This document shows positions 614 through 52,210 of a stretch of 64,000 nucleotides of DNA, piece after piece. The position numbers and the translations under genes were made by a program. The stretch comes from Alphaproteobacteria bacterium. Its GTDB lineage: Bacteria > Pseudomonadota > Alphaproteobacteria > RF32 > CAG-239. The notes below the pieces were generated by a model. That model was not told the origin of the DNA and ran no database searches. It saw only the letters and a program-made list of their open reading frames with translations. The first letter of the stretch is position 1, and the number at the start of each line of letters is the position of its first letter. The DNA is taken from positions 4,900-68,899 of the forward strand of contig JAGAJR010000017.1 in assembly GCA_017626035.1 (NCBI GenBank). The letters are read 5' to 3'.

Positions 614-689
<76 letters not shown>

Positions 690-692
690 AAA

Positions 693-722
693 AAACACCG
701 CAATAGGCGGTGTTTTTTTTGT
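693..722 (+). terminator. rho-independent terminator after tRNA-Ala
   Basis: ACACCGC-aatag-GCGGTGT hairpin followed by T9. Confidence 0.85.
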
Positions 723-991
723 TTCGGTAGCCAATCAAACATCGCAAGGCTCGTTTTCTTGGAAGCGGGTCCCCTTAGAAACATAGGTTCACTTCGTTTG
801 CTGTCGCTTCACTTGTTTACCAATGTTGTCTAAGATTTTGCAGACAAAAAAGTAAAGCATTTTGCTTTTTTGCTTAGCAATTACCTCCACCCGGGTCAAG
901 ATCAGCAGAAACATGAAAGTTAAGGGGCTATCTTGCATTTGATAAAGTTTTTTGTTATGTTTAGCTCCGTTAATTCAAAATAGGTTGAAAA

Positions 992-4339: not shown

Positions 4340-4462
4340 CAAATTTAATGCCTTGGATTTCAAGCAGTTGTTTCTTTAATTGCGGAGACCGGAACTTTTT
4401 TTGTTTGTTGTTAATAAATTTATAACTATCTTTCCACCATACTGAGTTCATCAGAAAAATAA

Positions 4463-5581
<1,119 letters not shown>

Positions 5582-15350: not shown

Positions 15351-15436
15351 GCGGCCGTGGCGAAATTGGTAGACGCGTAACGTTGAGGTCGTTATGAGCT
15401 AAGCTCATGGAAGTTCGAGTCTTCTCGGCCGCACCA
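15351..15436 (+). tRNA. tRNA-Leu (anticodon GAG)
   Basis: Type II tRNA with long variable arm, anticodon loop TTGAGGT, encoded CCA. Confidence 0.9.
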
Positions 15437-15507
15437 AAAAAGCCCCTCTGAATGAGGGGCTTTTTTGGTGCGGAGAAGACTATGACGTCAAAGATGTAAC
15501 ATTCGCC
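15436..15507 (+). repeat. 72-bp direct repeat copy 1 (terminator hairpin plus inverted tRNA-Leu 3'-end fragment)
   Basis: Repeated at 15657-15727 with 2 compensatory mismatches in the hairpin; contains ggtgcggagaagac, a near-reverse-complement of the tRNA 3' end. Confidence 0.8.
15437..15467 (+). terminator. rho-independent terminator after tRNA-Leu
   Basis: GCCCCTC-tgaat-GAGGGGC hairpin followed by T6. Confidence 0.8.
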
Positions 15508-15656
15508 AGAATAACTGTCGTTTATTTCGGCTCATTAACATCTCAACGATTGGTTCGCAAAAAATCCAAATCGTTGGATTTTTTTCTCCCAATTCTCGGC
15601 CGCATTGAGATGAATTGTTGAATCTTGCAAAAAGTGAAATTTATACAACCAGATTC

Positions 15657-15727
15657 AAAAAGCTCCTCTGAGTGAGGGGCTTTTTTGGTGCGGAGAAGAC
15701 TATGACGTCAAAGATGTAACATTCGCC
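15657..15727 (+). repeat. 72-bp direct repeat copy 2
   Basis: See copy 1; GCTCCTC-tgagt-GAGGGGC hairpin followed by T6. Confidence 0.8.
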
Positions 15728-15780
15728 GTGACAATAATAAAAAATCCTTCTTTTGAAGGATTTTTATTATTGGAAATGAA

Positions 15781-16377
15781 TTATTCAGAGGAAGTTGTAA
15801 TATTGGTTAGGACATGTGCAAGATTGACGGCTCCGGTTGTTTTGTTGATTGTTTGTGTTAATTTTTCTTCAGACAATCCGCTCAGTTCGGATAAAGAAGA
15901 AATATATTCTTTGTTTTTTTGTTGTGTAGCCGCTTCAATTTTCAGTTCACTGTAATTGAACAAGGCAAAACGTCTGACGGCGACATCTTTTTTTATTTGT
16001 TTTAATTCAGCACTTTTTAAATTTGATTTTTCCATATCAATATAAACGCCGTCTTTATTATATTGCCACATTCCGCCGGTTGCAACATCCGTCAGCCAAC
16101 TTGGCCAAAAAGTCAGATTTAATATAGCTATTTTACTGAAATTGGAACGTATCACGATTTGTTTATCGTCATATCCTGTTTTTTTAGCTGTAACGATTGC
16201 AGTTCCTGATTTTCTTTCCATAGGATATACGCATGGTGTTTTGCAAATTTCTAAACCATCAACGTAAACTTTGACTCCTTTGATATTAGAATCAAAACTT
16301 ACATCTTGATTGGAACTATTGAATAATGTTCCGCAAGCCCCTAAAATTAATGTAAACAATAAAATTATTTTTTTCAT
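15781..16377 (-). CDS. putative lipoprotein
   Basis: MKKIILLFTLILGAC lipobox signal peptide; no recognizable family; low GC. Confidence 0.6.
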   Translation of the reverse strand: MKKIILLFTLILGACGTLFNSSNQDVSFDSNIKGVKVYVDGLEICKTPCVYPMERKSGTAIVTAKKTGYDDKQIVIRSNFSKIAILNLTFWPSWLTDVATGGMWQYNKDGVYIDMEKSNLKSAELKQIKKDVAVRRFALFNYSELKIEAATQQKNKEYISSLSELSGLSEEKLTQTINKTTGAVNLAHVLTNITTSSE

Positions 16378-16718
16378 AAATTCAAACATCCTTTAACAAG
16401 TTAAACAAAACCCGCCGAAAAGGGCGGGCGGATGTTCGAAAACCATTGAATGTTATGGCTCGGCTTATTTAGCACATAGCCTTATTTAGCCGACATCCAC
16501 CCTCAGGTAGAAATCGACATAAATATTTTAAGTCGTTATGTAACGACTACATTCACAAGGGTTTTCGACGCCCTGAGCGGAATATTGGAGTGTTCCGCTT
16601 GTTTGAAAGAGTAGAAGAGATTTTGATAGAAATCAAGTTAAAATATTTGAATAAATCTTTTATTGAAAATTAGGAGATTTTCTGTCATTTATAATATATT
16701 ATTTTATGGGAGGCGGGT

Positions 16719-17585
16719 ATGAGCAGAGCAAAATTTTCAATTGTGTTTGCGGTAATGGTGTTTTTTATTCCTAAAGTTTGTGATGCCGGATTAAATGAAT
16801 TGATTGTTGACAAGACGCAAGAAATTACCAAAGAGATGGGATTTTCCGACCAGTTCCTTGAAAATTTGAAGGATTGCAAACCTTTTCAGGAAAGCCGCAG
16901 TTATAACGGAATAGAGGCCGTTTATGAGATAAAGGGCAGGGATGAAGACGGAAACTGCATTATTGTTTCCAACGGCAACCATGAAAAGATTCAAGTTGTT
17001 TCGACCTGTAAATTTGACAAAGATATTCTGGATTTGTTTTACCACTCTCAAGTTGAAGTCAGAAAGTTGATTGCCAATGCAAGTTCTGTCGAAGAAATTA
17101 TCGGAAATGAGAATTATTTGTTGGCCGGAGGTTTAATGATGAATGATGAACTTTGCCGCAATGAACGTTCTGAATATGATCCGACCAAAGAGTTGCGGGA
17201 AAAATTGGCTAAATGTGAACCGTATCAAGATGTGGAGCGGACGGACCGTTATGAAATTATTCGGGATATAGACGGCAGGATTGGAAATGTCTGCCGTTAT
17301 ACGATGCAAACGATAACCAAAGCCCCAAAAGAGGAAGAGTTACGGAAACTGCTCGGAGACGAAACTTTTGAAAGTATGAAAGATACTCTGCTTAAAGATA
17401 TAAGTATGACAACTAAATGTGCCTTTACGCCTGAGGGGCTGCAGAAATATATTTCTCTTTTGGAGAAGACGGCAATTCCGTCAGGAGATGCTTATGATTT
17501 GTCGTATATGGATAATTTGCGGGAGTCGAATAAGGAAGCGGCTGATTTTTTGCTTGAGACGGAAGAGTGTAAAACTTACCAGTAA
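16719..17585 (+). CDS. secreted protein with internal Cys-containing repeats (C-K/E-P-F/Y-Q)
   Basis: Signal peptide MSRAKFSIVFAVMVFFIPKVCDAG; repeated LKDCKPFQE / LAKCEPYQD / ETEECKTYQ modules; low GC. Confidence 0.6.
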   Translation: MSRAKFSIVFAVMVFFIPKVCDAGLNELIVDKTQEITKEMGFSDQFLENLKDCKPFQESRSYNGIEAVYEIKGRDEDGNCIIVSNGNHEKIQVVSTCKFDKDILDLFYHSQVEVRKLIANASSVEEIIGNENYLLAGGLMMNDELCRNERSEYDPTKELREKLAKCEPYQDVERTDRYEIIRDIDGRIGNVCRYTMQTITKAPKEEELRKLLGDETFESMKDTLLKDISMTTKCAFTPEGLQKYISLLEKTAIPSGDAYDLSYMDNLRESNKEAADFLLETEECKTYQ

Positions 17586-17702
17586 ATTGTCAGATTGCAA
17601 AAGCGGAAATTGTGCATATTTTAATTTTTGTCTTTCAGAAAAAGCGATAACAGATTAAAAAGACGTTAGTTTAGTTGAGGTTTTTTATTTTAGGGAGGTT
17701 GT

Positions 17703-27092: not shown

Positions 27093-27182
27093 GGAGAGGT
27101 GGCAGAGTGGTTTAATGCAGCGGTCTTGAAAACCGTCGAGGGTGCGAGCCCTCCCAGAGTTCGAATCTCTGCCTCTCCGCCA
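27093..27182 (+). tRNA. tRNA-Ser (anticodon TGA)
   Basis: Type II tRNA, anticodon loop CTTGAAA, long variable arm, encoded CCA. Confidence 0.9.
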
Positions 27183-27362
27183 TTAAAAGCCGTTTCAATT
27201 TGAAACGGCTTTTTTGTATTTAAGGGAATGTTTATGGCGGAGCGACTTACACGTCGCAAGGCTTGTGTTCGTCGGGCAGAGCTCGTCCTCTTGGGTATCT
27301 AGCTTCGTTGCGAAACAATAAGTTTCTAACTCAGCAAGATATTCCAAGAACTTGCAGATAAA
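27172..27362 (+). repeat. tandem repeat unit 1 (tRNA-Ser 3' 11 nt + terminator + 150-nt segment with 22-codon mini-ORF)
   Basis: 191 nt repeated at 27396-27586 with a single mismatch; period 224 bp. Confidence 0.85.
27185..27216 (+). terminator. rho-independent terminator after tRNA-Ser
   Basis: AGCCGTTTCAA-t-TTGAAACGGCT hairpin followed by T6. Confidence 0.85.
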
Positions 27363-27386
27363 AAACTAACGTAGGTTAGTTTTTTA
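27361..27386 (+). terminator. hairpin plus T-run between the tandem units
   Basis: AACTAAC-gtag-GTTAGTT hairpin followed by T5. Confidence 0.55.
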
Positions 27387-27395
27387 CTTAGCGTT

Positions 27396-27586
27396 CCTCT
27401 CCGCCATTAAAAGCCGTTTCAATTTGAAACGGCTTTTTTGTATTTAAGGGAATGTTTATGGCGGAGCGACTTACACGTCGCAGGGCTTGTGTTCGTCGGG
27501 CAGAGCTCGTCCTCTTGGGTATCTAGCTTCGTTGCGAAACAATAAGTTTCTAACTCAGCAAGATATTCCAAGAACTTGCAGATAAA
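27396..27586 (+). repeat. tandem repeat unit 2
   Basis: See unit 1; begins with CCTCTCCGCCA, a copy of the tRNA-Ser 3' end. Confidence 0.85.
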
Positions 27587-27735
27587 TAGGGTGGCTATCT
27601 CGGTAAGTTTGTATTTTCATATTGATACTACAATGTTTTTATATGTGAATGACAAAGAGGTATGAGGGGATATTCTTTTTGCTTGAATTCTCTCTCGGCT
27701 GTTATATTCTTGTTTGCGGACGGAAGGAGCGGAAT

Positions 27736-51867: not shown

Positions 51868-51955
51868 GGAGAGTTGGCAGAGTGGTAATGCAGCGGATTG
51901 CTAATCCGTCATCGTGAATAGCGATGCACAGGTTCGAGTCCTGTACTCTCCGCCA
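51868..51955 (+). tRNA. tRNA-Ser (anticodon GCT)
   Basis: Type II tRNA, anticodon loop TTGCTAA, long variable arm, encoded CCA. Confidence 0.9.
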
Positions 51956-51963
51956 TTAAAAAA

Positions 51964-51995
51964 AGCGGTATCCTTAATGGATACTGCTTTTTTTA
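51964..51995 (+). terminator. rho-independent terminator after tRNA-Ser-GCT
   Basis: AGCGGTATCC-ttaat-GGATACTGCT hairpin followed by T7. Confidence 0.8.
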
Positions 51996-52159
51996 TGTTT
52001 GAATGAAGAGACAGGCTCGAACCGAGAGGCTCGCTAAGCAAAAAATACAATGATTTGTATTTTTTGTCTGCAAGAGCATAGATGGTCTTATTGAGCAAAG
52101 GAAGTGTAACGACTGCGGCGAGATTAGAGCTCTATGAGAAAGAGCAGTGAAACTGCGTA

Positions 52160-52210
52160 GTCCTGTACTCTCCGCCATTAAAAGCCGTTCCTTTGGGAGC
52201 GGCTTTTTGT
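52160..52210 (+). repeat. displaced copy of the tRNA-Ser-GCT 3' end (19 nt) followed by terminator hairpin
   Basis: AGTCCTGTACTCTCCGCCATTAAAA identical to 51937-51961; followed by AGCCGTTCC-tttg-GGAGCGGCT plus T-run. Confidence 0.7.

Follow-up and report, generated by a model that had tools for sequence, protein, structure and literature searches.

The 380-bp stretch described here is the 3′ flank of the tRNA-Leu(GAG) gene in 64 kb of alphaproteobacterial DNA (the window, by which we mean the whole stretch analysed). A unit composed of a hairpin, H1, and a non-coding structured module of about 140 nt is present there in one complete and one truncated copy. All four tRNA genes of the window are followed by diverged relatives of the module, which share a common layout and each carry the end of the respective tRNA. 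A conserved fold that ends in copies of the neighboring tRNA's own 3′ end, at four tRNAs, is a feature without known precedent; the element matches no Rfam family or published description that we found, and it looks like an undescribed functional element. The strongest facts are the purifying selection on the module, its compensatory pairing, and its exclusive association with tRNA genes in the window. On the sequence evidence, the module may be a tRNA-linked structured trailer RNA, carried in arrays that resize by recombination between repeats of "tRNA end + terminator", and we would give this reading a probability of roughly 0.5.

The unit downstream of tRNA-Leu(GAG) and its orthologues

A preliminary description of this DNA had reported a tRNA-Leu(GAG) gene followed by a 72-bp direct repeat pair. 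ARAGORN confirms the tRNA on the + strand (Table 1), with 51.6 bits for the Rfam tRNA model, and the last 15 nt of the gene, TTCTCGGCCGCACCA (hereafter X), form a sequence that recurs downstream. The repeat is real and begins with a terminator hairpin, but the repeat finder gave a length of 71 nt rather than 72 (15437-15507 and 15657-15727, identical at 69 of 71 positions). Its 41-nt core occurs twice in the window, compared to none expected from 100 shuffles. In terms of the unit, the 71 nt correspond to H1, an inverted copy of the tRNA 3′ end (X′), and the first 27 nt of the module body.

H1 is a GC-rich stem-loop followed by a T-run directly 3′ of a gene, which is the definition of an intrinsic (Rho-independent) terminator. 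Both copies were called as + strand intrinsic terminators in the terminator scan, and the two hairpins fold at -25.4 and -22.4 kcal/mol. H1 has the form of a bidirectional terminator of tRNA-Leu, which is its predicted function. The two differences between the copies had been described as compensatory changes that preserve the hairpin. They are a C to T change in the 5′ arm of H1 and an A to G change in the loop (TGAAT vs. TGAGT), and neither compensates the other; the former turns a G-C pair into G.U on the + strand and into an A.C mismatch on the - strand.

As had been noted, each unit also carries a near reverse complement of the tRNA 3′ end. This is X′, GGTGCGGAGAAGAC, the reverse complement of GTCTTCTC[GGC]CGCACC with a 3-nt gap. 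X′ makes up the 5′ strand of a predicted closing helix, P1; alternatively, it prolongs the H1 hairpin back onto the tRNA end, in a fold of -53.3 kcal/mol (z = -8.8). Within the module, P1 encloses a long arm, P2, and a third arm, P3, which carries P4 at its tip. The second hairpin with a T-run that had been reported between the units was recovered as P4 (15559-15569 / 15574-15584, or 15559-15590 with the T-run), as was the 12-nt direct copy of the tRNA 3′ end, TTCTCGGCCGCA, which has no further copy in the 64 kb. This copy is continuous with the 3′ strand of P3, marks the 3′ boundary of module 1, and is the 3′ strand of P1. The CCA after TTCTCGGCCGCA has been lost in the window's lineage, while sister lineages keep the full X and then H1. 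The 52-nt spacer that follows the copy in the window retrieved only matches to itself across all DNA gathered for comparison. Unit 2 lacks the interior of the module, scores 25.4 bits with the covariance model R1 described below, and ends after ...GATGTAACATTCGCC, from where the DNA is lineage-specific.

Relatives were found through FliE homologues and through searches of species-representative genomes and metagenome contigs with conserved parts of the unit. All are from uncultured Alphaproteobacteria, with human gut given as the label for several metagenome contigs, and the titles of the metagenome-assembled genomes read "uncultured Azospirillum sp.", "uncultured Alphaproteobacteria bacterium" or "Alphaproteobacteria bacterium". 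Contigs encoding the same FliE protein were either identical to the window (L001, L002) or ended inside the repeats. Contig L003 (ERZ28655052 scaffold_12813) was rejected as a strain variant: it is a chimeric assembly joined inside tRNA-Leu, with a left part identical to the window and a right part from lineage B, the true fliE region of which is seen in L014-L020.

The module follows tRNA-Leu(GAG) in five lineages, namely A (the window, L012 and L013), B (L014-L020 and L026), C (L011 and L016), E (L031 and L032) and F (L033-L035). Across these lineages the repeating unit is ordered as X, H1, X′, and a conserved body of about 125 nt that runs straight into the next X. H1 is lineage-specific, and lineages E and F have a non-hairpin spacer in its place, such that no hairpin separates their tRNA from the module. 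Lineage C has an acceptor variant, TTGGCCGC, and the same change is found in its downstream copy. The number of modules varies from one to at least three between lineages or close strains: L012 has two, lineage B has one together with a 51-nt repeat of X-H1-X′, and within lineage B contig L018 has at least two identical modules versus one in its sister contigs L014 and L019. The module of L035 has an internal deletion. The preliminary description had named an identical arrangement in all relatives, free of indels, as an outcome that would count against its interpretation; what we found was this variation in copy number and, in lineage D (L025), an empty site.

An alignment of 13 distinct Leu modules is almost gap-free, with a mean column identity of 83%. 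Modules of lineage A share 84-94% of positions with the window module, and those of lineages B, C, E and F share 72-81%. In the neighboring flgC and fliE genes, by contrast, identity to lineages B, E and F at four-fold degenerate sites is only 39-46%, which is near saturation. The Leu module is therefore under purifying selection in at least five related lineages.

The RNAalifold consensus for the alignment has 38 pairs arranged as a three-way junction, 14 of which show double changes. P1 is formed by GAGA at the 5′ end of X′ and UCUC in the terminal X. P3 has the consensus AUUGN/NCAAU, with a 3′ strand contiguous with X and with P4 stacked on it. In P2 the compensatory pairs are 22-83 (G-C in most lineages, C-G in E and F), 30-76 (U-A in most lineages, G-C in B), 36-71, 37-70, 40-67, 46-62, 47-61, 50-57 and 51-56; in P3, pair 89-125 is G-C, C-G or U-A depending on the lineage, and four pairs of P4 have double changes. 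Altogether 95.7% of cells are paired. The covariation score is 0.331; sliding the partners by 1-3 columns lowers it to 0.02-0.08, and none of 500 shuffles reached it. The slid controls likewise gave only 1-4 pairs with double changes. The three-arm fold is kept through compensatory changes, and by the generic criterion for a structured RNA it exceeds its controls. The preliminary description's suggestion of small structured RNAs is supported in this way, by changes across other lineages. Its own argument fails, since the two differences between the window's copies are not compensatory. Among unpaired positions, the blocks AAGACUAU, UCAAAG and CUGUCG are invariant in the module, the last of them lying at the P2 apex, where it is partly loop and varies slightly in the Leu alignment.

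Only the ends of the module derive from the tRNA. Downstream of the terminator, an alignment to the reverse complement of tRNA-Leu covers about 30 nt (acceptor and T-arm; z = 3.9). We also asked whether the module in its full length might be the complete tRNA copied in inverted orientation and rejected this, as only the 5′ approximately 30 nt are supported and the match to the anticodon arm has z of about 2.5 in lineage A and about 0 elsewhere. A tRNA pseudogene in direct orientation was likewise rejected (z at or below 0). On both strands, ARAGORN calls just the four true tRNAs of the window and no tRNA, tRNA-like sequence or transfer-messenger RNA (tmRNA) in a module.

No conserved reading frame was found in the module, which has a 2-nt indel between the window and L013. 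A mini open reading frame (ORF) at 15478-15497 with a Shine-Dalgarno-like GGAG (ATG ACG TCA AAG ATG TAA, MTSKM) is invariant in lineages A-C, as is a palindrome alongside it, TGACGTCA; both are absent in lineages E and F. A leader peptide MTSKM was rejected because lineages E and F carry ATTCCCTC/ATCCCCTC at this position, with no ATG. A longer ORF through the module (seen in L013 and L003) was also rejected, because the 2-nt indel disrupts it in the window and substitutions in the stems are of the compensatory kind. The mini-ORF and TGACGTCA are probably incidental to a constraint at the RNA or DNA level.

Related modules at the other tRNA genes

The covariance model R1 was built from the Leu-module alignment and used to search the 64-kb window with filters off. 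Matches were found only next to tRNA genes, at 4 of 4 window tRNAs, and nothing else in the 64 kb was significant. A dispersed repeat family unrelated to tRNAs, which the preliminary description had put forward as the outcome that would overturn it, is therefore not what the window contains. Each window tRNA has exactly one extra copy of its own 3′ end, located 171-224 nt downstream, and the direct repeats that include this end measure at least 12-15 nt for Leu, 11 nt for Ala, 11 nt extending to 191 nt for Ser-TGA, and 25 nt for Ser-GCT. Each module folds alone into P1, a long P2, and P3/P4, and three of the four are on the strand of their own tRNA.

The Ala module has its own terminator (689-720), a P2, a P3/P4 formed by UUGCAG...CUUAGCAA (838-880), and a copy of the tRNA-Ala end, TTACCTCCACC (881-891). 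At tRNA-Ser(TGA) the layout is a terminator, X′ as TGGCGGAG (27235), the body, and X as CCTCTCCGCCA (27396-27406). This locus contains a 191-nt direct tandem repeat (27172-27362 / 27396-27586) that is 99% identical, with the second unit truncated; the fold of the module has z = -6.9, and 32 of the 38 R1 pairs are formed. Comparison of the Ser-TGA and Ala P2 stems by eye gave 4-5 compensatory differences around a conserved bulge. The module at tRNA-Ser(GCT) is the only inverted one and also the one with a decayed P2, which is weak and poorly paired; its P3/P4 (52033-52073) reads on the - strand. This locus has an inverted copy of the T-arm and acceptor (52000-52029; about 30 nt, reverse-complement z = 4.2) and, at 52159-52183, 25 nt of the tRNA end repeated in direct orientation, 222 nt downstream. 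In direct orientation z is below 0 at all loci.

Orthologous Leu modules score 139-161 bits with R1, while the modules at other tRNAs score 15-29 bits. Since the copies at different tRNAs are so much more diverged than orthologues, they are old residents rather than recent transpositions.

A further family member was found in L041 (2164-2320), after fliE and with no tRNA called by ARAGORN in the 3.9 kb fetched. It forms 34 of the 38 R1 pairs and has no ends derived from a tRNA; its own 5′ part recurs after it as a 25-nt repeat. The P2-P3-P4 core can thus exist without an adjacent tRNA. When this sequence and the Ser-TGA module are added to the alignment, 26 of 38 pairs have double changes, a count from a model-fitted alignment, which is biased towards the model.

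A short motif, GTTAAGGGGCTAT / TAGGGTGGCTAT, occurs after the last tRNA-end copy in the window (892-935 and 27587-27600) and in L031 (3280-3292). As a shared post-array motif GTTAAGGGGCTAT was rejected, being not significant in a pattern search. The four tRNA genes and most long ORFs of the window are on the + strand.

Table 1. Positions of the tRNA genes and of the parts of the tRNA-linked units in the window
Feature	Position	Strand	Details
tRNA-Ala(GGC)	614-689	+	
tRNA-Leu(GAG)	15351-15436	+	ARAGORN
tRNA-Ser(TGA)	27093-27182	+	
tRNA-Ser(GCT)	51868-51955	+	
H1 copy 1	15437-15466	+	A-run, GCCCCTC/GAGGGGC stem, T-run; terminator scan, fold
X′	15467-15480 (copy 2: 15687-15700)	+	Inverted tRNA-Leu 3′ end
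Module 1, complete	15466-15607	+	R1 154.5 bits; three-arm fold of P1, long arm P2, and P3 topped by P4
P2	15486-15548	+	Long imperfect hairpin with AGAUGU/ACAUCU core; alignment columns 21-84
P3 enclosing P4	15549-15593	+	P3 AUUGG/CCAAU; P4 A6, stem, T7
Direct copy of tRNA-Leu 3′ end	15593-15604	+	12 nt; sole other copy in 64 kb
52-nt spacer	15605-15656		Window's lineage only; relatives compared (L012/L013) have CCA then H1 there
Unit 2, truncated	15657-15727	+	H1 copy 2 (15657-15686), X′ (15687-15700), first 27 nt of body
Module after tRNA-Ala(GGC)	689-891	+	R1 match 770-881, 22.6 bits, E = 6e-4
Modules after tRNA-Ser(TGA), one complete and one truncated	27183-27586	+	R1 match 27267-27408, 28.7 bits, E = 2e-5
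Module after tRNA-Ser(GCT), core inverted	51956-52183	-	Weak partial R1 match on - strand

Trailer RNA, mobile element or by-product

In the reading that we favor, the module would be transcribed on the tRNA strand as part of the tRNA 3′ trailer. Lineages A-C would need read-through of H1 for this, and lineages E and F could co-transcribe the module directly, because no hairpin lies in between. The tRNA promoter would be the simplest source of the transcript, since no separate promoter fits and lineages E and F lack the intervening hairpin. The inverted and direct copies of the tRNA end would pair and close the fold via P1, and the tRNA-like "...CCA + terminator" end may let tRNA 3′-end processing enzymes trim the module into a stable RNA. 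Recombination between copies of the X + H1 segment would let arrays grow, shrink and become truncated; such resizing is seen directly in L018 versus L014 and L019. Wobble at variable positions favors the + strand, with 16 G.U versus 4 A.C.

Small RNAs (sRNAs) from tRNA 3′ external transcribed spacers (3′ETS) exist, for example 3′ETS-leuZ of E. coli. Like these, the module lies directly 3′ of a tRNA-Leu, in or next to its transcription unit, and would be released by tRNA processing. It differs in its three-arm fold of about 140 nt, its tandem arrangement, the copies of its own tRNA's end, and its position past a terminator in some lineages.

A number of observations weigh against a trailer RNA. 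The H1 between tRNA and module in lineages A-C is a strong terminator-like hairpin. No separate module promoter was found on either strand in a promoter scan, and there is no room for one between H1 and the module. The Leu modules fold 2-13 kcal/mol better on the - strand, because invariant C.A/A.C oppositions in P2 become G.U there, and we therefore reject a strand assignment, as G.U counting and folding energy contradict each other. None of the P1 pairs shows a compensatory double change among the Leu modules, and P1 is thus not distinguished from an alternative in which X′ folds over H1 to pair with the end of the tRNA. Two of the four window loci have lost the CCA of their terminal copy. 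Two further findings point to a process at the DNA level, namely the inverted core at tRNA-Ser(GCT) and the empty site of L025, where tRNA-Leu leads straight into the mgtE leader without a module and the flanks are too diverged to see an excision joint. One of the at least three units of L011 (unit 1) is an unrelated GC-rich insert with identical flanks, and truncated modules mark junctions with strain-specific genes. The L011 insert, the truncation junctions and the loss of CCA likewise suggest such a process. Our probability stays near one half because H1 looks like an efficient terminator in lineages A-C, CCA is lost at half of the window loci, and the strand tests disagree.

A promoter-like CTTGAT-N17-19-TAAAT is present before tRNA-Leu in all lineages; the consensus scan does not call it.

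A bolder extension, which we regard as speculative and distinctly unlikely, is that every tRNA gene of this clade has its own structured trailer presenting a base-paired copy of the acceptor end. Such genome-wide tRNA mimics might act as RNA decoys or sensors for enzymes or toxins that act on tRNA 3′ ends, or as folded recombination sites that let cassettes accrete without a linked integrase.

The DNA-level signs would be explained if the module were instead a miniature non-autonomous integrative or mobile element at tRNA 3′ ends, similar to a cis-mobilizable element (CIME) or an "attP-only" element. Its fold would then be a single-stranded DNA recombination substrate, its recombinase would be encoded elsewhere, and its repeats would also seed the insertion of gene cassettes beside the tRNA. 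CIMEs are remnants flanked by attachment (att) sites and without an integrase. We consider this main rival doubtful, though several observations favor it. The direct repeats begin within the T-stem or acceptor, at about tRNA positions 58-66, and continue across the tRNA end, with lengths of 11 to ~190 nt, like att blocks, and the tandem units and variable distal genes are also shared with att repeats and CIMEs. Such an element would fit the empty site and variable copy number, the opposite core at tRNA-Ser(GCT), the L011 insert, and the clustering of truncation points at alignment columns 33-46. It would fit as well the strain-specific genes directly after truncated modules, with a third module fragment of L013 lying beyond a 1.5-kb insert, the strand-ambiguous thermodynamics, and the bracketing of modules by terminators. 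The logic of att identity blocks (10.1101/2020.12.28.424599; PMC5704250), tRNA-proximal accretion (10.1101/2020.12.28.424599) and CIMEs (PMC5704250) have all been described.

Nevertheless, no integrase, transposase or other recombinase gene was found beside any of the four tRNA loci in a Pfam search of 10 flanking proteins, all of which are housekeeping (families QueH, PEGA lipoprotein, methylpurine glycosylase, Ogt, MFS transporter, ZIP transporter and CoA transferases). No similar sequence was found on viral contigs, in phage records or on plasmids. The high divergence of copies between tRNAs within the genome, set against conserved orthologues, gives no sign of recent movement, and for a single family to occupy four different tRNAs would call for several integrase specificities. 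Compared to att repeats and CIMEs, the units are small (~170-225 bp), contain no gene, have a structured interior conserved over a long evolutionary distance, and show no link to mobile-element collections.

Integron attC sites and the attP hairpin of phage CTX are recombination sites that act as folded single strands. The module resembles them in its conserved secondary structure with bulged bases, its arrays, and the strain-specific cassettes that adjoin it. Unlike in attC sites, however, its unpaired nucleotides are strongly conserved; by eye it has neither the integron R′/R″ nor the dif consensus, no integron integrase is in view, and it is tied to tRNA ends. ERIC, RIME, Correia and REP/BIME repeats, palindromes that resemble transposable elements of the miniature inverted-repeat type (MITEs), are of similar size, intergenic, folded into hairpins and sometimes tandem. 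The module differs from these in that its "terminal inverted repeats" come from the neighboring tRNA, its copies within the genome are diverged, and it occurs only at tRNAs in the window.

We give little credence to a third possibility, in which the array is a by-product of local duplication and selection acts only on a bidirectional terminator battery (H1, P4, H1) that insulates the neighbors from the tRNA promoter. Template switching at the terminator would produce the inverted partial tRNA, and slippage or unequal crossing-over the tandem partial copies. H1 and P4 do share the form of an A-run, stem and T-run, with both H1 copies called by the scan, at both Leu and Ser-GCT the module's 5′ part consists of ~30 nt of inverted tRNA 3′ end, and L018 shows a change in copy number by recombination between repeats. 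A parallel exists in plastid trnF pseudogene arrays, which PMC3786074 describes as tandem partial tRNA copies beside a functional gene, without integrases or another recombinase. According to that paper, those arrays consist of recognisable tRNA fragments that evolve neutrally, whereas in the module only the ends are tRNA-derived and the core fold is shared between tRNAs. Local duplication also leaves P2 unexplained, which has no T-run yet bears most of the compensatory changes, as well as the P3 pair 89-125, whose 3′ strand is beyond the T-run, the invariant unpaired blocks, and the P2-P3-P4 core common to modules at different tRNAs.

The preliminary description had interpreted the pattern as attL/attR remnants, and passive scars of larger islands or prophages at tRNA-Leu are now largely refuted and very improbable: direct partial tRNA 3′ ends are the usual mark of integrated elements and are standardly read as attR (PMC9897764; 10.1101/2020.12.28.424599), and different strains do have different genes between the array and mgtE, but the DNA between the repeats is 72-81% conserved despite near-saturated silent sites and keeps its fold through the 14 compensatory pairs, the spacing is similarly small (171-224 nt) at four tRNAs among housekeeping genes, and there are no integrase remnants or similarities to phages or plasmids.

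Partial tRNA copies are routinely read as footprints of mobile elements, and here they bracket a conserved, structured element matched to its tRNA. If the module acts as RNA, it would represent a new family of tRNA-linked non-coding RNAs in abundant uncultured human-gut Alphaproteobacteria and a new way of borrowing the end-processing signals of a neighboring tRNA. If it instead works at the level of DNA, it would represent a minimal recombination module aimed at tRNAs, one that helps account for the growth of small gene islets beside them. Either way, such repeats call for caution against a default annotation as attR, and the covariance model R1 and the defined loci are available for experimental work.

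Searches for known families, the adjoining islet and a second repeat family

A search of Rfam 15, including T-box, tmRNA, leaders and alphaproteobacterial sRNAs, returned only the four tRNAs above the gathering threshold and nothing meaningful at E <= 0.05; sub-threshold matches at the locus (mir-6644, Phe_leader and others) reflect the hairpin only. A T-box was rejected: UGGU and a CUC codon are present, but there is no Rfam match and the elements are in the wrong order. As for a dif/XerCD site, GGTGCGGAGAA resembles an XerC arm by eye, but there is no XerD arm and the motif comes from the tRNA. The nearest candidates for an integron attC site, CGCTAAC, GTTAGCG and GTAAC, miss the R″ (RYYYAAC) and R′ (GTTRRRY) consensus, again by eye only. 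The module also does not have the characteristics of a MITE or other small transposable repeat, as its end repeats match the local tRNA, the duplications measure 11-191 nt, and there are no copies away from tRNAs in the 64 kb. In the published literature, no description of this arrangement was found.

Elsewhere in the window, a sub-threshold match to the Rfam family sRNA-Xcc1 (RF02221) was obtained at 16418-16502 on the - strand (38.5 bits, compared to a gathering threshold of 53; E = 0.0035). The match falls within the spacer located upstream of the PEGA lipoprotein gene, and its GGATGTT...GACATCC stem recalls the core of the module's P2. The sRNA-Xcc1 family is associated with integron cassettes.

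Between the array and mgtE (15728-17600 in the window) lies a strain-variable islet, which starts at a truncated module and in the window contains the PEGA lipoprotein gene and a 288-aa ORF. In L013 the interval (572-2185) contains a serum-amyloid-A-like gene and two small ORFs, followed by the third, diverged module fragment (2030-2061) and then a remnant of the same serum-amyloid-A-like gene. In L012 (reverse strand, about 4440-4560) the array is fused to the middle of a serum-amyloid-A-like gene, and in L011 (reverse strand, 500-1376) the interval ORF is HIT-like by eye. In lineages B, D, E and F mgtE comes next, without an islet.

Structured tandem intergenic units seem to be common in this clade. 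A second, unrelated tandem family with a period of 157-190 nt is located in the spacer between fliE and tRNA-Leu in L025 (2316-3100), L031/L032 (2322-2900), L022 and L045/L046, with about four copies in L025 and 3-4 in L031/L032. The array in L025 starts with AAACTCGTCT, and each of its units ends with AGACGAGTTT.

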